This document shows positions 21,940 through 63,600 of a DNA stretch of 64,000 bases, in pieces. A model generated the notes under the pieces. That model made no database searches. It saw only the letters and a program-made list of their open reading frames with translations, and was not told where the DNA came from. Position 1 is the stretch's first letter. Every line of letters begins with the position of its first letter. The translations under genes and the position numbers were made by a program. Origin of the DNA: Chiloscyllium plagiosum (taxonomy: Eukaryota); contig NC_057753.1 in assembly GCF_004010195.1 (NCBI RefSeq), forward strand, positions 6,940,273 to 7,004,272. The letters run 5' to 3'.

Positions 21940-24900
21940 TAACTGAATTATGCATGATGTAAATTAGGAAATGCGGTTCCGATTAAAAAACAATTTTGTT
22001 GGCTGAATCCGCCAAAGTTGGTACACAGTCAAGAGGAGATTGAAAGCATGCTCCAAGACGACATAATCAAAGTGAGTTGCAGTGGCTGGAGCTCACTCTC
22101 AGTAATGGTAGTAAAATCACATGGTACCACACGGTTCTACCACGAAGTTAATGCCGTTACAAAGTCTGATTCATGTCCGATTTCACGTTTGGATGACTAT
22201 GCTGAACAGACGGGACACAAATTATATTTGTAAATTGGTCTCGCTCAGAAGGTACTGGCAGATACATTTATCTGAAAGAGTGAAGACAGTTTCAACTTTT
22301 GTAACGCCACATCGACTGCATCAATTCAAATTCATGTCATTTGATATGAAAAACGCAACAGCCATGTTTCAAAGATTAACCAATAATGTAATTTCCAGAT
22401 TAACCATTTGTGCATTTTACATTGATGACGCAGGAAAGGAACATTTGCAACATTTTACAGAATTATTCATTCGACTTCGGGAGGCAGGCTAATGAAAATT
22501 CGGAAAGTGCAGTGCCAAAAAGTACATCATGTGAGGCAGCATACGAGGAACAGGACAGTCGACTTTTCAAACATAAGCCCTTGGTCAGGGTCCCTTGTGA
22601 AGGGCTTATGCTGGAAACGTCTACTCTCCTGCACCTGGAATGCTGCTGAGCTGCCATGTTTTTCTAGCAGCACGTTTTTCGACTCTCACTCACCAGCATC
22701 TGTATTCCTAACTTTATACTAAGCTTTATGATAAACCTGGCGAAGATTAGTTTTGATAAAGCTCAAGTTACCTTCCTGGATCATATTATTGGACATGGAC
22801 AAATGACCCCATGGAATGCAAAACAACAAAGGTATTTGGAGAGTTTCCCAAGCCATCGACATAAGGAGCAGTACTACTGCTCCTCGAACCGAGTGGAGTT
22901 CATTGGAAATCCGTCAGAAATTTTAGCAATATGGTTGCTCCACTCGCTGACTTATTAAACAAAGGCGAGAATTTTCAGCGAACAGCGGATTGTCAGTACA
23001 CATTTGACAACTTGAAAGTTGTGTTTACAACTGTCCCTGTGTTAGCCACACATAATAGCACAAAGCTATTCAAGGTGGCTATCGAGGCGAGTGATGTGAT
23101 ATACTCTTAAAGGCAGATGACAAGACGATAAAAAGACCTATTAGATATTTCTCCACAAAAATAAACATTCATCAACAGAAATTGGACTCCACCGGAGGGT
23201 CCCTGCCCTGGGCTTGACATTTATGCTCAAACCATCAGGAAATATATAAATGCCAGATTCATCAGCCGCACTCACAATGTAGACCAAAACATCATCTGAT
23301 CACAACACAACGCCATACATGCTCTCAAAAGCAATCACAACATTGTCATCAAACCAAAAGAAAAAGGTGGAACCGTCGTCATTCAGAATAGAACAGATTA
23401 CTGCAAGGACATGTACCAATAACTGGACCACCAGGAACACTACAGGCAACTACTGGCCGATCCATCGAAACAATACACCCGTGAACTAAACACATTGATC
23501 ATGACGTTTGATCCAGTCCTTCAGAGTTTTCTACGCACCATCATCGCACGTACGTCTCACGTAAATGACATCTACTGCCTTACAAAGATTCGCAAAACCA
23601 ACACACCAGGACAACCCATCGCACCAGGCAATGGGACCCTGCGTGAGAACCTCTCTGGCTACGTCGAAGGCATCTTGAAACCAATTATACAGGGGACCCC
23701 CAGCTTCGGTCGTGACTCTACAGATTTCTTACAGAAAGTCAGTGCCCATGGACCAGTCGAACCAGGAACATTCCTCGTCACAATGGACGTTTCAGCACTC
23801 TACACCAGCATCCCCCACAATGATGGCATTGCATCAACAGCCTCAGTACGCAACATCAACAACTGCCAATCTCCAAGCACTGTCCTACAACTCATCTGCT
23901 TTTCATCTCGATCACAACATTTTCACCTTTGACAACCAGTTATTCATCCAGACGCACAGAACAGCCTTGGGGAACAAATGTGCACCCCAATATGCCAATA
24001 TTTTCACGCACATGTTTGAAGAAGACTTCTCCTCTACGCAGGACCTCCAACCATACACCAGGTACATTAATGACATTTTCTTCCTCTGGACACATGGCGG
24101 GGCGTCATTAAAAAACTACACAGTGATATCAACAAGTTTCATCCCAACATCAAACTCACCATGGACTACTCTCTACTACCTGTCACATTCTTGGACACAT
24201 GTATCTCCACCAAGGTGGGCATCTTAGCACCTCACTCTATTGCAAACCCACGGATAATCTCACGATGCTACACTTCTACAGTGTCCACCCTTAACACATT
24301 AAAACAGCTATCCCCTATTGGCAAGCCCTAAGCAAACAGAGGATTGATTCAGATGAGGAGGAATGTGATGGGCACCTGAAATTACACAAGGATGCCCGTA
24401 TAAGAACGGGTTACGATGCTCAACCATCGACCATCGACCACCGAATTGCCACAGCGAGAAAATATCATGATCTCTCCAGGAGATAGGCACGAGCTGCAAA
24501 CGACAGCGTACTCTTCATTTGTCCAGTACTTTCCAGAAGCCGAAAAACTATGCCACCTTCTTCTCAGCCTGCAACACATTATCAATGAAGATGAGCACTT
24601 CGCCAAGACTTTTTCCACACTTCCCGCTCTCACCTTTTAACAACCACCAAACCTCAAACAGATCATTGTTCGTAACAAACTACCCACCTTTCAGGACAAT
24701 ACTATACAATCTTGCCACGGTAGACACTGCAAGACGTGTCAGAGTGTCGATCCGGATACTACCATTACGCGTCTGGACACTTCCCACTGTGTACGTGCCA
24801 GGTACCTTGTGACTCAGCCAACGTTGTCTATCTCATACACTGCATGAAAGGATGCCCTGAGCCATATTACATTACCGAGACCATGCAGAGGCTACAGCAA

Positions 24901-27882: not shown

Positions 27883-29243
27883 TTATTCACATTTTTTTTT
27901 TAATTTGAGGAGGTGCTTCCATAAAAATGTAACTACATTCTTCATCTCGTCTCTGAATTTGCTCTGTGTTATTGTATATATACAAGGGTTAAGAAAACAA
28001 CTCAACATCTTTAGCATATTTCCTGCTTCAGTTATGATATATTCAGCGTTTGTGACGTTGCCTCGGTAATAATTAGGGTGGGACAGTCTGGTAATAATCA
28101 AACTCAGAGAATATGTCAACCAAACCATTACGAAACTGAACGAAACAGAGAATAATAGAATGATGGATTTCCTACGGCATTCCATATCTGAATTATTGTG
28201 ATTCTCATTTCTGCGTCCTTGGAATTCAAGGCGGATTCTATTCGCCATCAAAATACGATGGATAGTTAAAGAATTACACATGAAAATTAGCAGAAATGGA
28301 ATCCAAACAATCCAGGCGCAGTAAAACCAGACAAACGATATTCCCGGAGATGAAGCTAAGAAACTTAAACTTGTTTGGCACCCCCACGGCAATTTATTAA
28401 TGATTTGTTCAGGCTCATATAGAAATAAAACCGGAACATTCTTTAACAAGTTCAGGACTGAGATGATTATTAACACTCTGGTGGCAGTTCTTTTGGTGCA
28501 ATACCATGTGTTGAATTTCTGAAGGCAAATCATCACAAATCTGTCAAGTGTGAAGGAAACTGTGAACCAAACATTTAAATCGAGTGCGATTGCGATCATG
28601 TATATAATAAGTTTGCAGACAGGCGTGTAGGATAAGAAGGAAAAGGGAAAGTAGTAGCTGAAAATTCGATACACTACAATGCTATTGATAATAACCAATA
28701 GATCTGCTGTTGCCATGGCCACCATGTAAACGGAGATGCACTTGGAAAGTCCACAGTTTCCTCGCAAAATGATTAAAATAGTCATCAAATTCGCTGTAAG
28801 AGAGACAGAAAATATCTCAAAGCATCACTGCAATAAACATGAAGACATTGAAAGAGTATTTGAAAACATTCTAGTTGATATTTTACATACTTAATTAATC
28901 CAACATTTTCTTATGCTAGTGCAGATATTCTGCTTGGTATGATGAGATCATTTAAAGGTTAACAAACGTATATTTATAGAACGTTATTATTACACCAGAA
29001 ATATTTCAGATAGCAGCAAAAAATGGGAAATGTCCACCACCGTTTCTTCATCTTATGCTAGTAACAATCCATTGCGGAAAAGTGACATTGTTAATCAGGC
29101 TATTTTGACAATATGCAGCATTAGCAATGACAAATTAGCATTGACTCAAGCCAAAGAGGTTAGAATGACTCACCTGGGAAGCAAAGAATTGCAAGAATTG
29201 GGTAGTAAATCTCTTTCAAAAGCATAATCACTGGCTTCGCCAT
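27883..29243 (-). CDS. GPR139-like class A GPCR, gene B, intact (exon 1 29243-29174, exon 2 28793-27883; 326 aa)
   Basis: Exon 1 MAKPVIMLLKEIYYPILAILCFP ends G|GTGAGT; 380-bp intron ends CTTACAG; splicing gives A-NLMTILIILRGNCGLSK; MATADL, TLDRFV, PWGC, IPF..CNSL, SIILLFSVS..VW, NPCIY, SKFR; 981 nt uninterrupted. Confidence 0.93.
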
Positions 29244-29869: not shown

Positions 29870-30700
29870 TTGGCAAAACAAAAGAACGAATTAATAATGA
29901 AGTGTACGGCTTCACATTTGGAAGTTTAATCAAGAATAATCAGTATGCCTTCATGAAAAGGGAATCATACTTGAACATTTTATTAAAGTTTTATGGGGAA
30001 GTTGAACCAGAATGGATAGAGGGAGAGCTGGTAGATGTATTGTATTTGGAGTTCCTGGTAACGTTCAACTAGAGCCTTGGATTCAACGATTATAGAGGTC
30101 TATAAAAACATGAAGCACACACGTAAGGTCAATGGCATGTCTAATTTCCTAGGGTGAGTTATTCCAAGACAACGTGACATATTTTCCAAGGACGAAAAGC
30201 GCAGCAGGTCAGGCAGCATCCAAGGAACAGGAGAATCGACGTTTCGGGCATAAGCCCTTCTTCAGGAGGGCTTATGCCCGAAACGTCGATTCTCCTGTTC
30301 CTTGGATGCTGCCTGATCTGCTGCGCTTTTCCAGCAACACATTTTCAGCTCTGCTCTCCAGTATCTGCAGTTCTCACTTTCGCCTCGAATATTTTTTCAA
30401 GCAGAATGGACAGATATTTTTTTTAAAAAACCTATGAGAAATACTTTAAAAAGGTATGAGGGGCAAAATTATTCCACGTAGTTAAGACCTTATGTGGAAA
30501 GAACATACAGAGAAAGTAGTAAAGGTGTGTATAGTTGCAAAATTTAAAGGATGTTTAGTTAAGAACATGAACAACAAATGTTTGTATGAATAATGGTAAT
30601 ATTCACGCAAATGGGAAGAGATTAGCTTGGGATGACGTTCTGCATTGATTGTTTGGCCCGAAGGATCTATTTCCGTTCTCTGTGACGCATGACAGTATGA
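29870..30700 (+). mobile_element. Decayed CR1 fragments with an inserted palindromic Penelope-derived MITE (about 30195-30380)
   Basis: LIKNNQYAFMKRESYL..VDVLYLEF and a 3' tail; the insertion GAGAATCGACGTTTCGGGCATAAGCCCTTCTTCAGG-AGGGCTTATGCCCGAAACGTCGATTCTC is an inverted repeat. Confidence 0.7.
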
Positions 30701-42200: not shown

Positions 42201-45200
42201 GCTGCGAGGTGGCAAATGATATTTAATTGGACAAGTGTGAAGTGATACACTTTGGACGGAGTAATCAGAATGCAAAGTACTGGGCTAATGGTAGGATTCT
42301 TGGGAGTGCAGATGAGCAGAGACAACTCGGTGTCCAGGTACACAGATCCCTGAAAGTTGCCACCCAGATTGACAGGGTGGTTAGGAAGGCATGCAGTGTT
42401 TTAGCCTTTATTAATACAGGGTTTGAGTTCCAGAACGAGGAGGTTATGCTGCAGCTGTACAAAGCTCTGGTACGGCCACACTTGGAGTACTGTGTACAGT
42501 TCTGGTCACCGCATTATAAGGATGTGGACACTTTGGAAAGGGTACAGAGGAGATTTACTAGGATGTTGCCTGGTATGAAAGGAATGTCTTACGAGGAAAG
42601 GCTGAGGGCCTTGAGGCTGTTCTCGTTAGAGAGAAGAAGGCTGTTCTCGTTAGAGAGAAGAAGGTTGTGAGGTTAATTAATAGAGACATACAAGATAATC
42701 AGAGGGTGAGATAGGGTGGACAGGGAGAGCTTTTTTCCAAGTATGGGGACGGCAAACACGTGGGGACACAACTTTAAAGTGAGGGGAGATAGGTATAAGA
42801 AAGATGTCAGAGGTAGTTTGTTTACTCAGAGTAGTAAAGGTATGGAATACTTTGCCTGCAACGGTAGTAGATTCGCCAAGTTTATGTGCATTTAAGTCGT
42901 CATTGGACAGACATATGGACATACATGGAATAGTGGAAGTGGGATGGACTTCAGATTAGTACGACAGGGCAGCGCAACATCGAGGGCCGAAGGGCCAGCA
43001 CTGCGCTGTAATGTTCTATGTTCTAATCTCAACTCCCTCATCTTTCTCTTTACTTTTCACTTCGTGGTGACTTATTTTAGTGGGATCTGCTTACCACACT
43101 GTCTGGGAAAGTACTAGGATATTGCTGTTTTTAATCACTCGGTTTCTTCTTCTTCCTTGGGCTTTTCCACAACAAGCAGTGTCACTCTCACGTTGGATCC
43201 TGCCAAATCATTCCCAAGAATGAAATTAATTCCGGGAAATAGCACTCTGTCAATCACTCCTGCTGTAACTTCCACAGACCTAAGTTGGCACTCCTACCTG
43301 GTCTTTTATAGGGGAACTTAAACATCTGTCCATCTATCCCACAAACTTTCACATTCTAGCGTAACAGATCATAAACGGTGTATATTCGGTCATCTCTTAC
43401 TATCACCAACTCGTTAGATCCTGCATCACTCAAAATTATAACTTCTTGCCCTTCTCCCACTGTCCGTTCTGAGTAAATTTAATCCACATGTGAATTCTTT
43501 GTAGAAATCAGGTACTATCTTCATTTGCAGCCCCTGCCTATGCTGTCCTCTCTCCTGCAGATGCTCGATTCTTTTTGGTCTCTGCTTTATTACCTTCATT
43601 CGTGCCACTGGCTTAGCTTCCTTTACCACATCCTATCCCACAGCACCTTTCATTAACAACCAGCACTGAAACTTCGTGTGTCCCACTTTACCATACTGGC
43701 AACATTTGAGGCCTTCCATTTCATTTGCACCCTCTTGAGCTTCTTTTTAATCCTGTGGTAATTTTTTTAGCAGTGCTCTCTACTCTTGGTTTTATAGTAT
43801 AGGATCATCCCTTTTCCCAACTTCTACCACTCACAGGTTAAAATTTTGGCTGGAAGCTTGCCTGAAGCACCAACATGTATTCAACTGCTAATTCTGCTTC
43901 CCTTCTCACTTCATGAACTTTTTGTTCCTTCACGTGAATTCTTACCATCTGTGGAAGTGAGTTTTTATTTTTTTCCATCAGAATAATCTCTCTTAGAGCC
44001 TCATAGGTCTTAGTTATTTTTAAAGCACGCACCTATCTATCAAAATGACTATGTTTAATTCTTTCGAAATCACCGTAAGTTTGACCTGGCTCTTTATTTG
44101 TGTCTCTGAACCGCTGTCTTAATGCTACTGGTACTAAATCATAAGTACTTACATTACTCTTTCAGTTTGTCCTAATTTCTTAATCCCTAATCTGACAGCG
44201 GGGTAAATACCTCACAAGCTCTGACAAACAGTTTAGCCTGAATTAGCATTACCCATTAATACTCGAACAACTCCATTTTCCCAGCCAATTTTTCAAATGA
44301 AATAAAGAAGACTTCAACATTTTTCTCATCAAAACGTGGCAGACCTTTGGCAAATTTCTATATCTCGACCTTCTCTTTTCATCTCTGTTCTGTTGACTTT
44401 GCTGAATAATTAGCAACATCTCAAGTTCAAATTATATATTTTGCTGAGCAAAGAGCCTTCTCTCTCTTTCTTTCTCCTCTCCCTCTCTTTCTCTTTCCCT
44501 TTCTTCTCTCTCTTTGCTCAGCAAATTACATTCTCTTTCTATTTCGCTTTCTCTCTCCCTTTATATATCTTCTAACTCCATTTTCCTCAATGGTAATTTA
44601 ATTTTTTCTACCTCTATCGCACTTGTTGGTATCTCTGACAGTCCTAAGAGTTTGAGTAACTCCCTTACAATTTCAGTTTTGCTTTTGTCCTTGGTTAAAC
44701 CCAAATCTACCTTTATTTGCTAATTCTAAACGTATGATAGTTTTTCTTTCGTTTTAAACTTTCTTGGCAAATCTGCGAATCAGGTGTAAATCTTAAAACG
44801 TCTTTAGGAACTTGAAGAGCCATTTTTCTCTCTTTTAATTGAATCAACTGCAAGTCACCGAAATTAAACAAATTACCTCATCTACGCTGTCTTTAAAGAT
44901 TTAGGTCAGTAACCTGCAACTTTTTACATCTGCTGATACTATTCGTTCACCCAAATCCATTCAAAGTTGTCCAAACCAGTTCAAATTCCGGAAGGGGCCC
45001 CCGAACTGTTACGACACGGGATAAGCCCTCGTGCTTAATTCAAACCAGAAACAGAAGATTTATCCCGTGCAGTAATCTGTGAAAATTTGAGAGGCCAAGA
45101 GCTACTTCAAGTTCAATAAACAACTTTATTTCTTGAAGTGTAACATAAGTTAATTATTTAACAATTATTTACATCTCCTTCCTCTAAGCTATCTTTTACT

Positions 45201-45712
45201 TTCCTATCTATAATACGAGTCCAATAAAACACCCCGATTAAGATTTACTGAAAAAAAATAACATTTCAAACCAAGCCAGTGTTCGAACCTTATCCTGTAT
45301 TTTCCTCAGTAGACTTGCTCTCCAAGTTGGTGTTGATGTTTTTCTCTGTGCCACCTCCTTCTCGAGACAGGCACCTCTCAGAGAATTCTGAGCCTACATC
45401 TGTTGGCCTTTTGGCAGTTCTCCTCCAACTGTTCAATATTCCCCGGTTTTATACCCCAAAACATAGCATTGTTTCATTGGTTTTAATATTGTCAATATAG
45501 TAACTTCACACTTGTTTGGAGGATGGTATTTTGGGGAATAATTTGAACTGATTAGTCGAATTCACATTTTTATTTTTGTTTCCAGGCAAACAGCTACCCT
45601 AGCCGCTGGGCCACATGTTACTTTGTATCTTATTCAGAACGTTGTTGCTCTTAGGTAATTCTTCTAACATTTAATTGTCTTAAAGATGCAGTACACCCAC
45701 ATCATCATAACA
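36265..45712 (-). mobile_element. Gmr1-like Gypsy LTR retrotransposon (5' LTR 45712-45007, PBS, gag, protease, integrase, RT, RNase H), split by a CR1
   Basis: 706-bp LTR TGTTATG..GTAACA then GTTCGGGGGCCCCTTCCGGAAT (Pro-like PBS); gag YEALREIILME..SLPQMVRIHVKEQKV..AAEL and C-x2-C-GKVGH knuckle; integrase EPFTQFIIDCV, GLPREINLDQG, HPKSQG (38400-37500) lies before RT (KLDLMRG, FKVMSFGMKNASATFQR, VINLNK) and RNase H. Confidence 0.88.
38827..43024 (+). mobile_element. Near full-length CR1 LINE (5' UTR, ORF1 zinc finger and esterase, ORF2 endonuclease and RT, 3' tail), inactivated
   Basis: ORF1 CSSCRMWE..CGKC, GDS..DRRFCG, VIHIGTND; EN GGGVAL, FYRPPN, VMGDFNYP, DLVL; RT PGNYRPVSLTS, MDFSKAF, FADDTK; tail (ATGTTCT)n; 24-bp in-frame duplication 42614-42661. 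The Gypsy sequence reads through if it is removed. Confidence 0.95.
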
Positions 45713-46530
45713 CTTGGTCACAGATAACGGGCTATTTTTTAGCGGCAGGGAGTTTGAAAATGTCTTAAAATCGACTGGCATTCCACATATAAGGATAGCC
45801 CCATACCATAAATCCTTCATTGATCTGATGGAAAGAGCAATTAAAGTTTGAAGGCAGACCTAAGAAACAATCGATAGCTTCGCTATGTGCACGGCTCCTA
45901 TTTGATTAACTGCAGGGGTAGCTTGAACACAGCTGCTCATACGAGGGACACTCCAGGAAACGTTTGGTCGTGTTGGTGCTAAAATGGCGTCAGGATCACA
46001 AATACTGAGCACAGGTCTCTGCTAAGCGAGGGAGACCGATTACTCAGGGGATGAAGATAGGGATAGGAATCATGGGAAAGGTGTTGCATGTACAAGAGGC
46101 ATGATGCAGTGACATATCATGTTCGATAGCTCAACTGCCCTGAACAAAAATCTGGACCTGATGGAAGGTGCAAAATTACAAACAATGCCGAATTAAAACA
46201 TTCATCTGTTCTTCAGTCTTCCGAACTGTTCTGGATGTCCTTGGTTCTCCACTTGCATGTTAAAACACCCTAGAAGTAGCAACAGAAATGAACAAATCTA
46301 CATCGTCAGACTCGAGGGATTGGGGGGATTTAATGGTTGGAATAAATTCAACCAGATGAACGTCATAGCATATGAGTCTGTTAATTGATTCCAATAAGGG
46401 AGCCCTGACTAACAGGTAAGAACAGGAATGTCAGGTAACTGGGCACTCTGACAGGCGGCCCTGAGAGAGAAGGAACAGTATTAAGGATTGTTCACAGAGA
46501 CATAAAGGGTCACTTAGTGACTGGATACAG
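45713..46530 (+). mobile_element. Fragment of a different Gypsy lineage: integrase core, PPT and LTR remnant
   Basis: LVTDNGLFFSGREFENVLKSTGIPHIRIAPYHKS..LMERAIK; purine tract GAGGGATTGGGGGGAT near 46314-46329 followed by LTR-like sequence. Confidence 0.65.
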
Positions 46531-46621
46531 ACCTCTCTTTCAGAAAGTCATTACAAACTCTCATTCTTCCCGTGGTTTTGTTAGCTTGCACGTTAGATCT
46601 GCCTGACACCATAGACTGCAG

Positions 46622-46844
46622 TTGAAAAGTGTGGTGCGGGAAAAGTACAGCAGGCAAGGCAGCACCCGAGGAACAGGAGAATCGACGTTTCGGGCATAAG
46701 TCCTTCTTTAGGAAGGTCTCCTGAAGAAGGGCTTATTCCCGAAACGTCGATTCTCCTGCTCCTCGGATGCTGCCTGGCCTGCTGCGTTTCTCCAGCACCA
46801 CATTTTTCAACTCTAGTCTCCAGCATCTGCAGTCCTCACTTTTT
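46622..46844. mobile_element. Palindromic Penelope-derived MITE with 14-bp target-site duplication
   Basis: About 90-bp inverted arms centred near 46715; ACCATAGACTGCAG at 46608-46621 and 46845-46858. Confidence 0.88.
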
Positions 46845-50714: not shown

Positions 50715-51060
50715 TTGGGTGATGGACTAGTGATATATTCGCTGGACTACTAATGCAGGGAACCAAATGATGCTCTGGAGACCTGCTCTCGAATTCTGCT
50801 AGGTTAGGGGTGGAACTTGAATTTCATAAGAAATCAAGAATTAATCCAATGACGGTCAAGAATGCATTGCTGATTGTCAGAAGAAAAAAAACAACATACT
50901 TAGGTCACTAACATCCTTTAAAGAAAAGAATTGCCACTTTTTCATTGTCTAACTGACATAAGACTGCAGATGCTTAATAATGTAGTTCGTTCTTTGTTGC
51001 GCTCTGGGGAATTAGAAATGGGCAATGAATGCCCCTCCAGGTAGTGACACTGACATTCAA
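50715..51060 (+). mobile_element. Degenerate tRNA-headed SINE (SacSINE/DeuSINE-like) in the intron of gene C
   Basis: Head GTGATGGACTAGTG..CTGGACTACTAAT, ..GGTCACTAACATCCTTTA.. and tail GGGAATTAGAAATGGGCAATGAATG, resembling recalled shark Deu-domain SINEs. Confidence 0.5.
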
Positions 51061-52119
51061 TACATAACTTTTTTTAAAGTACTTACTTTCTCTTTGTCCT
51101 TTGCAGCGAATTCGATGACGATTTTTATTCTGTTGCGAGGAAACTGCGGCCTTTCCAAGTGCATATCTGCTTACATGATTGGGATGGCAACATCAGATCT
51201 ATTGACCATTATCATTAATGCTCTGGTGTATCGCATTTTGAGTTATTATTTTCCATTTTCCTTCTTGTCTCACACACCTGTGTGTTTATTCAATACCTAC
51301 ATGAGTGCTATTACTCTCGATTTAAGTGTTTGGTTCACCGTTTCTTTCACATATGACAGATTTGTGATGATCTGCTGTAAGGAGTTGAAAAGAAAGTATT
51401 GCACTAAAAGAACCGCGACCATTGTATTAATAATCATCTCAGTCCTGATCTCGCTGAAGAATATTCCGCTTTTGTTTGCATATGAGCCTGAGAAGAACGT
51501 TCAAAATGTCCCGTGGGGTTGTCGATCAAGGGGAACTTTCTTTGCTTCACCTCTTGGGATGACGTTTGTCTGGGTTTACTACGCCTCTGTTGCCTGGATT
51601 CCATTTCTCCTAATATTCATATTTAATTCCTTAACCGTCCACCGCATTGTTGTGGCGAATAGAACACGTATTGGACTCCAGGGACACAAAACAGAGACTC
51701 GTAGAAATTCGGAGATGGAGAACCGGAGGAAATCCATGATTTTATTATTCTCTGTCAATAAGCTTCATCGTGCTTTGGTTGACATACTCCCTGTGTTTGG
51801 TAATCACCAGAGTGTCACATCCTAATTATTACCGAGGTGACTTGACAAACCCTGAATACATCGCAACGGAAACGGGAAATGTCCTGAAGCTGCTGAGTTG
51901 TTTTCTTAATCCATGTATTTATATAGCAACACAGAACAAATTCAGAGAACACCTGAAGAATATAGTGAAATCCATATGTAAACAAACCCTCAGATTATAT
52001 TAAAGAATGATCAAAGTAAATCTACTTTGTCAGGACAACAACATAGCTGAGAGAGCATTTCACATATATCAAAAAAAAAACAATACATTTCACTTCGACT
52101 CTAGTACTGTACACAATGT

Positions 52120-53938
52120 TATTTTTTTACTTTAACTATTGCTTGAAATAGTTTTCACAGATTACTGCACGGGATAAATATTTTCTGTGTTGCTGAGTTA
52201 AATTGAGCAGGAAGGTTTACCACGTTGGAACAAGTTGGGGGCCAGTCATCGGGATTTGAACTGGTTTAGACAGACTTGAATACATTTAGGGGTGCAAAAA
52301 GTCCAGTAGATTTAAGCACTTGCAGGTTAGTGTCTTAGATCTTTTAATTAAAACTTAGTTGAGACAATTTATTTCCTTTCAGTGCCTTGTGGTTGATTAA
52401 ATTAAAAGTGAGAGACATTGCTCTTAAAATTGCTAAAGAGGTTTTGTGAATGGACGGGAATTCTCAAATTTTCCAAGAAAGTTTAGAAGGAAAAAAAAAG
52501 GCCATACCTTCAGATTTACCAAGTAAGGTAGGTTTGGGTTTAACCAAGGATAAAAGTCAAGTTCAAATTGTAAGAGAGTTACTCAAGGACTTGGTGTGCC
52601 AGAGAATCAGGCAAGTGCAGTGGAGGAGAAAAACTTACATTGAAATTAAGGAAAATGGAGTTAGAAGATAAACAGATGGAGAGGGGAAAGAGAAAAGGAC
52701 AGAGAACGAAAGAGAGAGAGAGAGAGGGAGAGAGAGAGAGAGAAGGTTCTTAGTTGAGCAAAGAGAGAGAAGAAAGGGAGAGAGAAAGAGATAATGTTGA
52801 AATTTAGAAGTGAAGAAATAGTCAGTACACTCAAGTTAACAGGATGGAAATTAGAAGAGAAGGCAGCGATATATATGTACATATATATGTCAAACTATGC
52901 CACATTTTGATGAGAAAAATGTTGAAGTCTTCTTTACTTCATTTCAAAAATTGTCTAGGCAGATGGAGTGGTCCGAGGATTAATGGGTAATGCTAGTTCA
53001 GACTAAATTGGTCGACAGACCTCGTGAGGCATGTACTGCACTGTCAGATGAGGGGTCAATAGATTATGTCGAGGTTAAACTGGCTATGCTAAGTGCTTTT
53101 GAATTGGCACCAGAAGACTATAGTCAGCAGTTAAGAAACAGGGAAGACTTACGTTGATTTCGACAGAATTAAACATAGTAATTTTGAACAATGGGTGCAT
53201 ACTTTGAAAATGGATATACCTTTGAGGCTCTAAGAGAGATTATTCCTCTGGTGGAGTTTCAAAACGCAGCGCCAGAGATGGTATGAATTAACGTGGAGGA
53301 ACAGAAAGTTCAGGACGTGAGAAGGGTAATAGAATTAGCAGATGAGTCCATATTGTTGCATAAGACAAGCCTCTAGCCAGAATTTCTTCCTGTCAGGGAT
53401 AGAATTTGGGAGAAGGTGAGATCCTAGACACTAAACCAAAAGTAGAGAGCACTGGTAAGAATTTACCACTGGATAGAAACGAAGCTCAAGGGGTTGAAAG
53501 GAGGTGAAAGGTCTCAGATACTTCCACTGTAGTAAGGTGGGACACGTAATTTCACACTAGCCTTGAAAGCAAGACGATGTGAGAAAACATGAGGTCAAAG
53601 AAACTAAGCTAATGGCATTAGTGAGGGTAGTAGAGGCTACCACAAGAAAAGCTGAGCAGCTGCAGGACAGTGCACAGCCTAGGCAGGGGCTTGGTATGGA
53701 GTTAGGATATTCAAAAACAAGTCCCATCTGTGGATAAAGTATACTCTGAATGAATGGGAGAGAAGGACAAGAAGTTATAATTTTGAGAGATACAGGATCT
53801 AACCAGTCGCTGATAGAAAGGGACGAACGAATATGCACTCTTTATAATATGTTACCCGAGTGTATTGTAATTTGTGGGACAGATGGACAGAAATGTCACG
53901 TTCCTCTGGGTAAGATCAGGTTGGAGTGCCAACTCAAG
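52120..53938 (+). mobile_element. Gmr1-like Gypsy 5' half: LTR U5 remnant (to 52232), PBS, gag, protease
   Basis: ..CACGTTGGAACA then TGGGGGCCAGTCATCGGGAT (Pro-like PBS); gag with (GA)n coil, PHFDEKNVEVFFTSF, EALREIIPLVEF..AIELADE; protease EVIILRDTGSNQSLI. Collinear with the minus element at 43100-45100. Confidence 0.88.
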
Positions 53939-55065
53939 ATACATCTGGGATCTCTCTGGATGTTGGGCCAGTACTGAAGATCCAAGGACGATATTCAGAG
54001 TGCAATGACGAAGGTTCGTCGATCCTTGAATGAAATTCCAATAGTTGAGTCTGAAATAAAGATAAAAAAAAGTGGTGAGCTGACGATTAATGGTGATGTT
54101 CAGGTGATTCCAACGCAAAAACGTTTGATGGAAATAGGGATGTATGCAACCCAGGGTGCCCTTAGCACAAGGTCTTCTTAAAAGGATGAAAATGGATCAC
54201 CCTTGCGAGGGTTCCTACTAGATGTGGATTTCTTTATTGCAACTATATTAATCAAAATAGCTTTGTGTTATATGGTACTTCAAGAAGACGAGAAGAAACT
54301 GATTTTTTTTTCCATGCAGAAGCCATGCTGATCATTTTACACATTGGTCAATCATCACTCCCAAAGGAATCAATTACCAGCGATGATATGGATCGTATTT
54401 CACTGTGTCTTAAAGTCGTTACAGAATGTTTCCCAGTGATGAACAACACCTTTAACAAAGAGTGCAGAAAAGAATCTCTCTCAAATGCAATCAGCGAAAC
54501 TTGAAGAGGAAAATATTTCTCAAAAGAAACAATCTGAAAAAAACAATGTATTGGTACAAGCAGACGATCCCATTTCCTTTATACAGCTAATGGCCAAGAA
54601 TGAGATGACCTCTAAGGATTAGTTTATTGGCAAATCTGATCCTTTAGCATGCAATCTCAGCAAGGTTACACAACTGACTGGTTTATCTGATCTAGTGTAT
54701 GCAGAAGCCTATGTGCATGTTGATCAATATGATATTGTACTTAATGTACTTGTGGTCAATCAATCAATGACTCACTTAAGAACTGTACTCTGGAATTTGC
54801 CACGTTTGGTGATCTAAAACCGATTAAAATCCTTCACTTCTAATCTTTGTACCACATGATTTTGCTAACATTAAGGCCAATGTGAAAATAGTGTTAGAAG
54901 AAAATGGCATTATTTTTGCTAATATAGTGTATGACATATCTGTGGCTGCCAGTGATCGAAACTGTGTGGTACTGAGTGACATTCACATTGATATCATGGA
55001 CTATATATAGCTTACCGTGTGCACTGATGCAGAATTTCGTCGGATGTGGCTGAGTTTTAGTGGAG
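53936..55065 (+). pseudogene. COPB1: Processed (intronless) fragment of coatomer subunit beta, degenerate
   Basis: [178 protein letters not shown]: collinear with recalled COPB1, no introns, several stops and frameshifts. Confidence 0.93.
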
Positions 55066-55476
55066 GAGAACTGCCAAACTACCAGCATGTAAAGACCGGC
55101 TTTAAAAATGTCTCTTAACGGTACCTTTATCGCTTAGTAACCTGTGAAGCTGAATCCCCAAGAAGAATAGAAGATGAGAATGCAGAGAAGAAACGAAAGT
55201 TGCCTGGTTTTGAGATAAGAAGCTTTGTTTTATAAATGTTAATCCGTGGTTTTATCCAACTTGTACTGTAGAACGTGAAGCTAAAAGATAGGTTCGAGAA
55301 TGGAGTTGTAAATAGTTGTTAGTTAATTATTCTCTGTTATGCTTTAAAAACAAATTTGTTAACTTTTACTTTAACTAGTTCTTGGCCACTCGAATTTTCA
55401 AAAAATACTTCACAGATTAAAACTTTTATGCGTTGCGGGATTTAAATTACAGAGTTGTTTAACCCATATTGGAACA
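55061..55476 (+). mobile_element. 3' LTR (R-U5-like portion) of the same Gmr1-like family
   Basis: Starts TGGAGGAGAACTGCCAAA, matching the reverse complement of 45427-45410 inside the full LTR; ends CCCATATTGGAACA, like the 5' remnant ending at 52232. Confidence 0.8.
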
Positions 55477-55799
55477 ATATACAAATATATAAAACAAGTT
55501 GTCAGCTAGCATTACTTAGACTTTTTACTGGACATTTCTTCCTGCATTATTTTCTGTTTTCATGACTTACCTTTGTCTTATAAATTTTGGCATATTTCTT
55601 CAAAGTTAACAAATTTAACTTTTTTGGATTAATGCTAAAATAAAGTTAGATGGACCACATGAGTGATGGTCTGACACATGAATTAACACAAAGGAATCTC
55701 TTACAGGAAACACAAAGCATCACACACGGTGATCCAATGCAGCAGGTTTTGTTTCTTGTATTTAGATTGAAACGAAACAAAGATTGCATTCTTGCTTGA

Positions 55800-55935
55800 N
55801 NNNNNNNNNNNNNNNNNNNNNNNNNNNNNNNNNNNNNNNNNNNNNNNNNNNNNNNNNNNNNNNNNNNNNNNNNNNNNNNNNNNNNNNNNNNNNNNNNNNN
55901 NNNNNNNNNNNNNNNNNNNNNNNNNNNNNNNNNNN
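55800..55935. other. Assembly gap (136 N)
   Basis: Run of N. Confidence 1.
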
Positions 55936-56253
55936 GACCCGATGACTGATCACAATTCCTCTTTGGCAATGAAGGTGGTGAACTTGCAACAGGATGGATT
56001 TTTCAGTAACGGATTGGAGGTTTATGGGAAAAGGCAAGCAGAGTGGGATTGAGGATCAGCCATGTTCTCATTGAAGAGTGGAACACAATTTGTGGCCGAA
56101 TAGCGTACTTCTTTATCGATATGTTATGATGTAATTGTTTTCTGGTGATTGATGTTCCAAGGAGAAAACAAAACTTCCGAACTAGACCCAGCCATATGAT
56201 AGATCACTTCTTTTGCTGAAGCGGTTTCTTCACATCGTGGTCTTATTTTTAAA

Positions 56254-56326
56254 GTTTTTGCGTTGGAATCACCTGAACATCACCATTAATCGTCAGCTCA
56301 CCACTTTTTTTATCTTTATCTCAGAC
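56254..56326 (-). repeat. 73-bp inverted near-identical copy of 54049-54122 (COPB1 pseudogene segment)
   Basis: Reverse complement GTCTGAGATAAAGATAAAAAAAGTGGTGAGCTGACGATTAATGGTGATGTTCAGGTGATTCCAACGCAAAAAC; one substitution and one A-run indel versus the source. Confidence 0.93.
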
Positions 56327-57179
56327 ATATTTTCATTGTGAAGGCAACATTTTCTCAGAGTAATAAAAAGAAAGCTATGTTGCAGAGCTTTTCCTGTTGT
56401 GGTGTTTGTTAAACGTTAACATTCCAGTTCCTTGTTTTTATTGTGTTTGTTTATGTCTTCATAGGTTTACAAAGTATGATTCCACACTGTCGCAGCTGAG
56501 GTATATGCACAAGCAAAGCGATTCCGTTGCTGTTGCAACATTTGTATCATGGATGGAACTACACACTCAGCCGAAATATGTATTTGCGTTAAATTGTTAA
56601 CTAAGTTGATCTTTCAAGCTTTTTTCTCAGAACGTGAGCAGACAAAATTGATCTGCAACTTGGAGACAGCATCGCAGCTCTTATTCTTAATAAGGAGCCA
56701 TATATGAACGAGCTCAATACGATACCAAAATCAAATGCGCCAGTTCGAAATCATAATAAAAAATCAAAGACGTTTCCTGTCACAAACGTGGATGCACTCC
56801 AGGATATTTTAAATCAATATAGAACATTATTATACCTCATAATAACATAATGAGACTTCATGCGGGACAACTTCTAAAAGGAAAGAAGTTGAAGAAAAGT
56901 TTTTTTTTGCGATTCTGGTAATAATATAATACAGAATAAAGCATTGCTTATTAACCAATAGGAAACGGTGATTTAAAAAAAAACGATAAAGCACAAAGGC
57001 GTGATGCCTAAACATTCAGTAATAAGTTCATTCATGAATCGTACATTCATGGAAACATCGAAAGTAATTGCAGGTATAGGTTGGTCAGCTCATGATGTCC
57101 ATATTCAGTATATTCATTGTTGCAGCACAGTAGTAAAAGCGTCTGATAATTAAATCAAATACCCCGAAAAGCTCATTTC

Positions 57180-58914: not shown

Positions 58915-59010
58915 AGATTCCTGAAGAAGGGCTTATGCCCGAAACGTCGATTCTCCTGTTCCTTGGATGCTGCCTGACCTGCTGTGCTTTTCCAGCAACA
59001 CATTTTCAGC
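58915..59010 (+). repeat. Penelope-derived half-MITE with a hammerhead-like core
   Basis: CTGAAGA-A-GGGC-TTAT-GCCC-GAAACGTC at 58921-58948 followed by GATTCTCCTGTTCCTTGGATGCTGCCTGACCTGCTG. Confidence 0.8.
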
Positions 59011-60619: not shown

Positions 60620-63600
60620 TTGTTAAATAGGGCAGGACTGGCGACTGAGGTGACAGTGGGAGAACACCTTGGAACCAGTGAGAATAGTTCTATCAATTAA
60701 AAGGTAGTTTTGGAGAGGGTTAAAACTGGTCCATAGGTTCAAGTCCAAAATTGAAGCATGACGATTTTTGATGGAATTAAACAGGAGCTTGCAGGGATTG
60801 ATTGTGACCGTTTCATTTTATGCAAAAGCGATAACCGGCAACTGGGAGACGTTTAAAAGTGAGATCGTTAGATCTCAAGGTCGGTATGTTGCTGCGAGGA
60901 TGAAGGGCAACATGGGCAGGAATAGGGAATCTTGGATGACAAGAAATACTGAAGCATTCATCAGAGAAACAAAGACGGCATGACTCAAGTACAGACAGCT
61001 GGGATCCGAATTCCTGGCGGTATTTAGAAGATACAGGAGATTACTGAAGAAAGGAATCAGGAGAGCGACAGGGGCACGAGATACCCTTTGCTGAGAATCT
61101 TAGGTTGAATTCAAAGATGTGTTTTAAGTATATTAAAAGTAAAACGAATAGCTAGAGAGAGGTTAATACTCTCAAGGACCAAAGTAGAACCACAAACGAT
61201 GGGCAATACCTGAATGAACATTTCTCCTTTCCGTTTACCATGGAGAAAGACATGAAGACATGTAAACTTGAGGAAGTTAGTCGTCATATCTTGGGGTGAG
61301 TCTATACCACAGTAGAGGAGGTGTTGAACATATTAGAATGTGGGAAGATGGATACATCTCCTGGTCTTAACCAGATAGCTCCAAGGACTCTGCAAGAGGC
61401 TAGAGAAAAAATGGCAAGGGCTTTGGCTGATATTTTAACATCTTCGTTCGTCAAGGGTGAGGTCCCAGAAGATAAGAGTGTAGTTAATAGTGTGTCCTTA
61501 TTCAAGAAGGGCTGCAAGGAAAATGCTGGGAACTATACACCAATAACCTTAACGTATGTGGTATTTACTGAACAAGATTCTGAGAGATACGATGCACATG
61601 CATTTGGAAAGGCGGGTTTCGATTAGGAGTGATCAATATGACTTTGTGAGTGGAAGATCATGCCTCACCAATTTATGAGATTTGTATGATGAAATGACGA
61701 GGAACGTTGTGGATTGAAGTGTGGTACATTTAGTTTAAATAGATTTCAGTGTGGTATTTGAGAAGGTCCACATGGTAGGCTGGTCTGGAAGGTTATTTCG
61801 CAAGCAATCTAAAGGTGGAGCTGAGAAATTGCATGCACAAGTGGCTTAATGGTTGGAAGCAGATGGAGCTCTATGAGTAGTGGGGTGACTCGCAGTTCGA
61901 CGCTGGACCACGAGAAGAAAGTGAAGACTGCAGGTATTGGATATCAAAGTCAAAAGGTGTGGTGCTGGGAAATTACAGCAAGTCAGGCAGTATCCGAGGG
62001 GCAGGAGAGCCAACGTTTTTGGCATAAACCGTTCATCAGGAATGTGCAGGTTCCAAGGCGGCTGAGTTATAAATAGGTGGCACTTGGGCGTGGCGGTAAG
62101 GTAACTTGGAATGCCATAGGTAGATGAAGGGGGAGGGCTGCTTGCTGATAGGTCGGAGCAGAGGGTGGAACGAATAGGTGGGGAAATACAGGTCGGACAG
62201 TTCAAGAGGGCAGTGACGATTTGGATGGTTGTATCTGGGATAGGGTGGGCTGGAAGGGAGATAAGGAAACTGATGAAATTGACATTGATGTCGTGTGTTT
62301 GGAGGTTTCCAAGGCAGAAGATGAGGCGTTCCTCCTCCAGGCGCCAGATGGCATGGCTTTTGTGATGGAGACCCAGCACTTGCATGCCCTTGGCGGTTTG
62401 GGATTGCAAGTTGAATTGATGGGCCACAAGGCCGTGAGGTTTTCAGGTGAGTGTGTCTCGGAGATGGGCCCTGCAAATTCCGCAAGTTGACTCCTGTCTC
62501 CTCAATGTAGAAGACACAACATCGGGAGCATCAGACATAGTAGATGAGGTATTTTGATGTGCAGGAAAATCGCTGCCAGACGTGCAATGATCTTTGTGTG
62601 TCTTGAATGGAGGTGACGGGCGAGATTTGGGTACAGGTCTTGCACCTCTTGAGGTGGCTAGGGAAGATGACAGGCGTAGAAGTTGGGTTGTTGAGCAGCA
62701 ATGTACCTAAGGCAGGGGTCGCAAAGAGAATGGAGTCTGTGGAATGCTAACAGGGGTGGAGACGGAAAAGATATGCCTGGCACTGGGGCCTGGTGGAAAT
62801 GGCGGATGATGATGTGCCATATCCTGAGATTGGTGGGGTGGAAGGTGAGGATCGAGAGGGTTCTAATCCTATTGCGGTTAGAGCGGTCTGGTTCAAGGAC
62901 GGAGACACAGGAAGTGGAGGAGATGCGTTGGAGGGAGTTGTTTACCACATGGAAGGGAAAATTTCTGTCCTTGAAGTAGGAGTCCATCTGGGATTTTCTC
63001 GAGTAGAGTACATCCTCCTCAGATCATATACAGCGCAGGCAGAGAATCTGGGAATCAGAGATCGCCTTTTCAGAATGAGTGGCTGATTTGGAGGAGTTGC
63101 AGTCCAGATGATTGTGGAAGTGAGTAGGTTTAAAATAGCTGGGTGAGTTGAGTCTGTCAACAGAAATGGAGATGGAGAGGAACCCATACCTGTGTGTTAT
63201 CTGTATCAATGACTTGAATGGGAATGTACCAGTCATGATTAGTAAGTTTGCAAACAACATTAACAGAGGGCAGTATTGTGTAGATTGAGGAGGTTTATCA
63301 GAAAATGCAGCAGAACGTTGATCAGCTGGGCATGTGGGCCCAGAAAAGTGAAATGATTTAAATATAGAAAAATGTTAGTAATTACATTTTAGAATGTCTC
63401 GTGAAGGTAGGAAGTTTATGGTATTTAGGACGTCTTAAGGAGCATACTGGAAGAGAAGGACCGTGGAGGTCAGCAGCATGGTATCTGAACGTGGAATCAC
63501 AGGCAGACAGTGCAGCGAAGAAAGTTTTGTCACCTTAGCCTTTATGAATCAAGACATTCAGTGTGGAAATTGGGTAGTTATATTGTTGATGCAAAACACT

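Follow-up and report, generated by a model that had tools for sequence, protein, structure and literature searches.

The window, by which we mean the whole 64-kb stretch of DNA analysed, contains a chimera of a Gmr1-like LTR retrotransposon and a host COPB1 cDNA on its forward strand, with ends placed at 52117 and 55476. Read 5' to 3', it consists of a U5 stub, PBS, gag and protease (52117-53939), eight spliced COPB1 exons (53934-55071) and an R-U5 part of an LTR (55063-55476), the element parts being in the same sense as each other and in genomic order. The 5' LTR stub (52117..52232) corresponds to the final ~116 bp of the LTR of this family, roughly its U5, starting with TGTTA and ending with ACA. 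It is followed by a PBS region (52235..52262) whose position and motif match those of 12 other family copies and which may resemble tRNA-Pro; no tRNA genes were found in the 64-kb window. A decayed gag, with a SCAN-type capsid region and a zinc knuckle, and a protease then occupy 52450..53939, with many stops and frameshifts. The 5' switch point (53934..53939) is formed by the 6-nt microhomology TCAAGA and leads into the processed COPB1 fragment (53938..55071), while the 3' switch point (55063..55071) holds the 7-nt word GGAGAAC, common to COPB1 and the LTR, plus two more LTR bases 5' of the word. The 3' LTR piece (55063..55476) covers LTR positions ~303-718, i.e. the predicted R-U5. Although both LTRs are partial, the outer termini of the chimera read TGTTA (left) and AACA (right).

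The host part of the chimera is spliced mRNA. Positions 53938-55071 map in order and in the same orientation onto eight exons of an intron-bearing gene (G000:C16:36374261-36392630), with all seven introns absent and the exon joints crossed at 54035, 54196, 54305, 54527, 54665, 54809 and 54928. With AG/GT boundaries set, the parent exons total 1,195 nt and contain no stop, one of the introns being GC-AG, and Pfam assigns the product to Coatamer_beta_C (coatomer beta C-terminal region). Compared to the parent, the retrocopy differs at 80 of 720 non-degenerate sites (K2P 0.121), at 19 of 163 fourfold sites (K2P 0.128) and at 139 of 1,116 sites overall (0.137), and it has accumulated six indels, two of them frameshifts, as well as stops. 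It shows no sign of selection and is in neutral decay, has no promoter, and has made no working gene. A LINE-made processed pseudogene was considered as a candidate and rejected, as there is neither a tail nor a target duplication and both ends are internal to the coding sequence, so that no intact mRNA 3' end is present. Within the final 63 nt of the piece no run of A exceeds 2, and the one 6-mer common to both of its sides, TGCCAA, was discarded as a target duplication, since both of its occurrences belong to the element's own sequence.

A DNA search with 53940-55060 (9/9 candidates scored) returned the chimera locus, a nearby inverted 76-bp fragment and eight exon matches in one C16 gene. 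No further COPB1 retrocopies were found by this search, by a Pfam search (9/9 scored) or by two parent-exon searches (2/2 each), which yielded only the parent and the chimera locus. The inverted fragment (56252..56326, minus strand) copies retrocopy bases ~54049-54125 and lies 1.2 kb away, with 96% identity to the retrocopy and 91% to the parent. It is a later copy that has derived bases in common with the retrocopy and keeps two parental bases, a combination that records an intermediate state of the retrocopy.

The family from which the remainder of the chimera derives has a second copy within the window (43025..45713, minus strand), with a whole 5' LTR, PBS, gag and protease before it is cut at 43025. 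Using this as a comparison copy, the chimera's element was found to be 73% identical to it up to 53934. Pfam gave no match on the two element pieces of the window, and the domain calls come from sister copies. In the fuller copies, SCAN, CCHC, integrase, RT and RNase H occur in that order, with integrase upstream of RT-RNase H in L076 and L080, and the SCAN domain PF02023 was identified in four sister copies, in three of them above cut-off. Integrase upstream of RT is the defining feature of Gmr1-like elements (PMC3587641), and the origin of the SCAN-like capsid domain is treated in PMC8321522; domain order and the SCAN-like capsid in the fuller copies would thereby place the family among the Gmr1-like Ty3/gypsy elements. 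It is large, with more than 3,000 first-look candidates for the LTR and for gag-protease alike, the best matches being 80-82% identical. A solo LTR of the family measures 718 bp, with a TATA box at 274, the word of the 3' joint at about 303 and AATAAA at 590. Normal copies have a polypurine tract ahead of the 3' LTR and 4-bp target duplications, which match at 3 or 4 of 4 positions in 8/10 copies and at only 2 of 4 in the other two.

The chimera misses ~3.5 kb of element interior, the protease region abutting LTR position ~303 in element terms, and the internal ORFs have thus been replaced and not interrupted. Neither LTR piece contains U3 or its TATA box, and no polypurine tract was found before the 3' LTR piece, where the longest purine run is 4. 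An earlier note on this DNA had described an element intact in order up to the protease with a switch near 53936, an intronless COPB1 piece in the same orientation with neither poly(A) nor a target duplication of its own, and a switch into a same-family LTR near 55061; all of this was borne out, the last switch being located at 55063, and the alignment to the COPB1 gene that the note proposed does cross seven exon junctions. Its placing of LTRs at both ends has to be revised, as each is partial with respect to the ~718-bp family LTR.

The chimera is one insertion, situated ~115 bp downstream of the stop codon of a rhodopsin-type GPCR gene (51016..52003, plus strand; ORFs 51016-51825 and 51740-52003; Pfam 7tm_1, E 9e-12), which is frameshifted near 51760 and has many paralogs on C44. 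Among 11 paralogous GPCR loci, the left flank could be aligned in all 11 and the right flank (55477..55699, plus strand) in nine. In these paralogs the right flank directly follows the left one, i.e. they represent the empty site, and in the closest paralog, L050, both flanks meet at one point. At the flank joint, a variable AT-rich region, the window carries ~13 extra bases, so that insertion cost little or no host DNA. The 4-bp target duplication of the chimera (ACAA/ATAT) matches at 2 of 4 positions, as in two of the ten normal copies.

That unrelated repeats were joined with cDNA-like sequence by the assembly is so improbable that we regard the chimera as real. No part has a near-identical source from which it could have been misplaced (best matches 80-82% for the element parts and 78-94% per exon), both flanks are contiguous in paralogs, and the neighbouring inverted fragment keeps an intermediate state of the retrocopy. 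Furthermore, 33-59% of the words sampled occur in contigs from 8 runs of 2 studies, although one of them may be the assembly source and such shares give no view of the joints. None of the listed runs was of RNA, which carries no information on expression; for a run from a second organism the share was 0.05.

The protease frame crosses the 5' joint and enters COPB1 in frame (ORF 53750-53977), and at this joint TCAAGA spans the junction of the upstream exon with the first captured exon, so that this word exists in the spliced mRNA only. At the 3' joint, GGAGAAC lies 3 nt short of the end of the last captured exon, and the two bases that the chimera retains 5' of this common word are of LTR type. 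In random joints of an element copy with the mRNA, microhomologies of at least 6 nt and at least 7 nt have probabilities of 0.002 and 0.0007, respectively. Both switch points are situated within 10 nt of exon boundaries, with a joint chance of about 0.013, a feature noticed post hoc. Splicing as the origin of the chimera was rejected, as no GT donor occurs at the 5' joint in the 20 family copies compared and no polypyrimidine tract precedes the 3' joint in the LTRs compared. A circular, back-spliced RNA template was raised since the piece is almost exactly eight whole exons, and was likewise set aside, as a circle, unlike linear mRNA, would need additional changes to account for the 5' joint.

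A related possibility is that capture proceeded via a same-family, same-sense element within an intron of the parent COPB1 gene, by read-through, by splicing or by a back-spliced circle of these eight exons. Such an element exists at C16:36383464-36386005, the chance of a sense copy in 30-80 kb being about 1-6%, and the nearness of both switches to exon boundaries (again about 0.013, post hoc) would suit this route as well. We nevertheless consider it very improbable: the intronic copy is no closer to the chimera than unrelated copies are (0.225 vs 0.228 expected; 21st of 22), it is without the LTR word of the 3' joint, and the captured exons lie on both sides of it, while the 5' joint has no splice donor and its microhomology is explained exactly by linear mRNA and not by a back-splice joint.

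The ages of the parts were compared. For gag-protease the branch of the chimera copy is ~0.138 in a star-like tree of 23 copies, whose references are its best matches, which biases the estimate. Corresponding values are ~0.157 for the 3' LTR piece, 0.152 for the 5' piece and 0.218 for the U5 part of the 3' piece alone. As the element estimates agree with the 0.12-0.14 of the retrocopy, all parts of the chimera are about coeval, at 0.12-0.16 substitutions per site. The two U5 pieces of the chimera differ at 33 of 113 sites (K2P 0.37), a distance that cannot tell one template from two: in this star-like family, the values for true LTR pairs (0.08-0.19) include that of random pairs (0.16). Markers close to the end of the LTR group the 5' piece into subtype B and the 3' one into subtype A. 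When two-LTR copies were typed in the same way, 17 of 20 were concordant and the three exceptions resembled later small deletions; by this crude typing, with its 3/20 discordant copies, the two LTR pieces probably represent different subtypes, leaning to two template RNAs. Both pieces end in TTGGAACA (52225-52232 and 55469-55476), an ending seldom seen in this family (frequency 0.02 of 44), yet it was rejected as proof of one template, given that at this divergence ~1 parallel change would arise by chance over 113 sites (an estimate).

These results qualify several further claims of the earlier note. The ending common to both LTR pieces was confirmed and does not show a shared template. Of the divergence comparison that it proposed, the agreement in age between the parts stands, whereas the LTR-LTR distance turned out to be undiscriminating. 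The note named LTR pieces of different subfamilies as a finding that would speak against its reading; the U5 markers indicate that this is probably the case, which counts against canonical two-LTR integration and not against capture. Capture by template switching is accordingly retained from the note and the canonical two-LTR form is not, with U3 and polypurine tract missing and the LTR pieces probably of different subtypes. The suggested non-autonomous family was not recovered either, the parent and the chimera locus being the only ones found and the unit having neither U3 nor polypurine tract. The COPB1 chimera is single-copy, decayed and dead.

Different subtypes at the two ends would also fit a composite made at the DNA level, i.e. 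a COPB1 cDNA from a LINE or other RT that microhomology-mediated repair had patched into a break flanked by pieces of one or two resident LTR elements. The later, templated inverted copy 1.2 kb away implies that local template switching does occur at the locus, and retrocopies are numerous in cartilaginous fishes, with 14,081 counted according to bioRxiv 10.64898/2026.06.26.734816. Such an origin is still improbable in view of the absence of poly(A) and of a duplication around the piece, the internal position of both mRNA ends, the same sense and genomic order of the element parts, the one clean empty site and the equal ages. The absent introns, the replaced interior, the 6- and 7-nt microhomologies and the equal ages together support the view that template switching captured a spliced host mRNA, and the RT of the LTR element very probably made the chimera in this manner, whether by way of strong-stop DNA or by the canonical route.

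The choice between these two routes centres on the position of the 3' joint. Of 66 occurrences of the joint word (a few of them from loci that overlap), 39 have an intact TATAA, and in 33 of these the word starts 29 nt past the first T of the box; mouse CAGE data place the TATA box at -32 to -29 (PMC1779604). Taken together, the spacing and the mouse data put the predicted cap site in the first bases of the joint word. That minus-strand strong-stop DNA ends exactly at the cap site is established retroelement biology (PMC7175516). The two LTR bases beyond the 7-mer are expected of such a fixed strand end and not of a clean microhomology deletion, and the differing U5 subtype markers, fitting two template RNAs, likewise count for an origin from strong-stop DNA.

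Similar joints were looked for in 54 other copies, comprising 37 of the best 40 matches of one search and 17 of the best 40 of another, and thus best-scoring copies and not a random sample. A 3' LTR is seen in 39 of these, the remaining 15 being without one in the stretch compared, and in six of the 39 the sequence jumps from the internal region to a point inside the LTR, at positions 287, 303, 303, 324, 601 and 678. The junction counts leave out L068 and L115, which keep the LTR start and have the interior deleted, L112, which starts at 57 where the threshold was 60, and the intronic COPB1 copy. Four of the six jumps fall within 302±22 (p 0.0003), an optimistic value since this interval was set after the positions had been seen. 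The two copies that jump at 303, L061 and L108, are not sisters (0.133 vs a median of 0.130), and their left ends are abnormal; the former lacks a 5' LTR and is flanked by a 44-bp target duplication, and the latter has a ~30-bp U5 stub before the PBS. Truncations at the 5' end were not significantly clustered in the 303 region (2/7, p 0.08), in counts that leave out L066, L108 and L130, which are cut by the stretch compared. A genome-wide 20-mer pattern test gave 501 exact matches, nine of which passed the filter, namely eight small deletions in normal LTRs and the chimera locus itself. No second foreign joint at the cap-site word was thus recovered by this test, whose filter passes roughly one third of foreign joints and whose 20-mer is not matched by L061 and L108.

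Other observations from the same copies count against strong-stop DNA. Three of the six with interior jumps (L072, L101 and L118) combine a whole 5' LTR with target duplications of 4-5 bp that match, and these normal ends show that the family does lose U3 by deletion after insertion. Moreover, L061 and L108 have an 8-nt microhomology with pol at the joint word, which could also drive a deletion at the DNA level. The alternative would be the canonical double template switch of Tan et al. with insertion by integrase, after which deletions took the 3' polypurine tract and U3 as well as the interior of the 5' LTR, from the terminal to the internal TGTTA. In its favor are the termini TGTTA and AACA, the clean empty site, the normal-ended copies with later U3 loss just mentioned, and the existence of LTR starts fused to interior sequence (L068 and L115). 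We regard it as unlikely, although a serious competitor: it requires two extra deletions, one of them ending at the predicted cap site, and leaves the two LTR bases beyond the shared 7-mer to be accounted for. The U5 subtype markers also differ, even though the normal cycle copies one U5 to both ends, and the target duplication matches at only 2 of 4 positions.

Our best reading, to which we assign a probability of about 0.55, is that the chimera is a promoterless product of minus-strand strong-stop DNA that jumped onto COPB1 mRNA, the cap site being a predicted one. A processed COPB1 fragment would have been made by a Gmr1-like Ty3/gypsy RT during the burst of the family. The tRNA-primed minus-strand strong-stop DNA (R-U5) would have missed the 3' R of the element RNA and annealed through its terminal word to a co-packaged COPB1 mRNA, of which RT may then have copied 1.13 kb through seven exon joints. 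At TCAAGA it would have switched onto a second element RNA in the protease region, continuing through gag and the PBS into U5, and yielding a cDNA product with neither polypurine tract nor U3 promoter. Such a product could have entered the flank of the GPCR gene once, either via its TG...CA ends, in which case the left end would be the internal TGTTA, or by being captured at a break, and would have been incapable of transcription from a promoter of its own and of further transposition.

More tentatively, mis-jumps of strong-stop DNA may recur in this family, with COPB1 mRNA as the target here and the element's own pol RNA in two copies. They might take place onto any RNA sharing the cap-proximal word and be followed by insertion without normal LTRs. 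If so, such joints would mark where transcription of an extinct element began, and LTR elements would have a second way of copying genes in vertebrates, one without a promoter. The nearness of both switches to exon junctions might even show a junction-bound protein steering where RT leaves the mRNA.

With regard to known systems, the COPB1 chimera is clearly a new example of an already known process, LTR-mediated retroposition (Tan et al. 2016, PMC5131818), which that paper reports in animals including zebrafish. As in the retrocopies described there, a partial mRNA replaces internal ORFs, poly(A) is absent, the sense is the same, an in-frame fusion is possible, and microsimilarity is found at both joints, with a median of 6 bp in their set and 6 and 7 nt in the chimera (the 7 with a 2-nt offset). 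Some of the zebrafish cases are directly flanked by LTR sequence, e.g. Gypsy164-LTR_DR with microsimilarities of 7 and 4, and BLASTOPIA switches near exon junctions (PMC5131818). Their model differs in expecting both LTRs and allowing further transposition, whereas the chimera has no U3 or polypurine tract, a mere stub of the 5' LTR and one copy. The main text of that paper contains neither "PPT" nor "polypurine", and its five uses of "strong" are unrelated to strong-stop DNA. The only unusual feature of the COPB1 chimera is that one of its switches lies at the predicted transcription start of the element.

Ty1 retrosequences of yeast, as described in PMC7175516, are alike in that the element RT copies a cellular mRNA and the chimeric cDNA enters at breaks or rearrangements without normal integration. 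Those events were selected in laboratory yeast, in contrast to a fixed, old and natural copy in a large animal genome. Host exons within an LTR element are likewise known from maize Bs1 and other amplified, gene-carrying non-autonomous LTR elements (PMC5131818), unlike which the chimera is unamplified and has no promoter or polypurine tract to allow amplification. To Gmr1-like elements (PMC3587641, PMC8321522) the likeness lies in the integrase before RT and the SCAN-like capsid, both seen in fuller copies, the chimera copy itself having lost integrase, RT and RNase H. In a weak literature search, with most subscription papers outside it, we found no report of LTR capture of mRNA in cartilaginous fishes or of strong-stop mis-jumps in natural retrocopies. 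LTR-driven mRNA capture has already been shown in flies, fish, birds and mammals, and to these the chimera adds a well-resolved vertebrate case in terms of parent gene, exon joints, both microhomologies, empty site and ages. If the origin from strong-stop DNA is true, LTR machinery can copy host mRNA also when the first strand transfer fails, with products that still enter the germ line.

Two loci elsewhere in the genome carry pieces of the Gmr1-like family joined at LTR position 303, the predicted cap site and the 3' switch point of the COPB1 retrocopy. At L061 (G000:C39:15365876-15375875), a 5'-truncated gag-pol piece is fused to this position between the two arms of a 44-bp target duplication, and is thus not an integrase-type insertion. 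The same joint is found at L108 (G000:C9:22837394-22845893), where a unit with the order U5 stub-PBS-gag-protease-R-U5 is nested in another copy, just after the initial 530 bases of that copy's internal region.

An internally deleted LTR element of the same family (G000:C16:36383464-36386005) lies within the parent COPB1 gene, in the gene's sense orientation, where it occupies a GC-AG intron that separates two of the captured exons; the first ~460-490 bp are missing from both of its LTR pieces. At L068 (G000:C27:14571383-14581382), both LTRs share an identical interior deletion of ~500 bp and keep the terminal motif, and this short-LTR variant has therefore passed through a replication cycle. 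Two mutually inverted family LTR pieces occur at G000:C20:11270575-11273995. The branches of both window copies (52117-55476 and 43025-45713) are ~2x those of the best-preserved copies elsewhere, which would reflect either a raised rate of substitution in this region or bias in the sampled copies.

The window also holds part of a cluster of single-exon rhodopsin-type GPCR paralogs (27901-28812 and 51016-52003; G000:C44, about 6.97-7.30 Mb) with 75-83% identity, and many further paralogs are found on other contigs. Short repeats occur as inverted pairs, with arms 2-5 nt apart, at five window sites (22504-22719, 30194-30380, 46613-46842, 58918-59010 and 61918-62044).

Lastly, a 76-bp inverted copy of retrocopy bases ~54049-54125 is situated at 56252-56326 on the minus strand. 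It arose late during the decay of the COPB1 retrocopy and looks like a local templated insertion; the surrounding segment (about 55700-56575) is absent from the GPCR paralogs.
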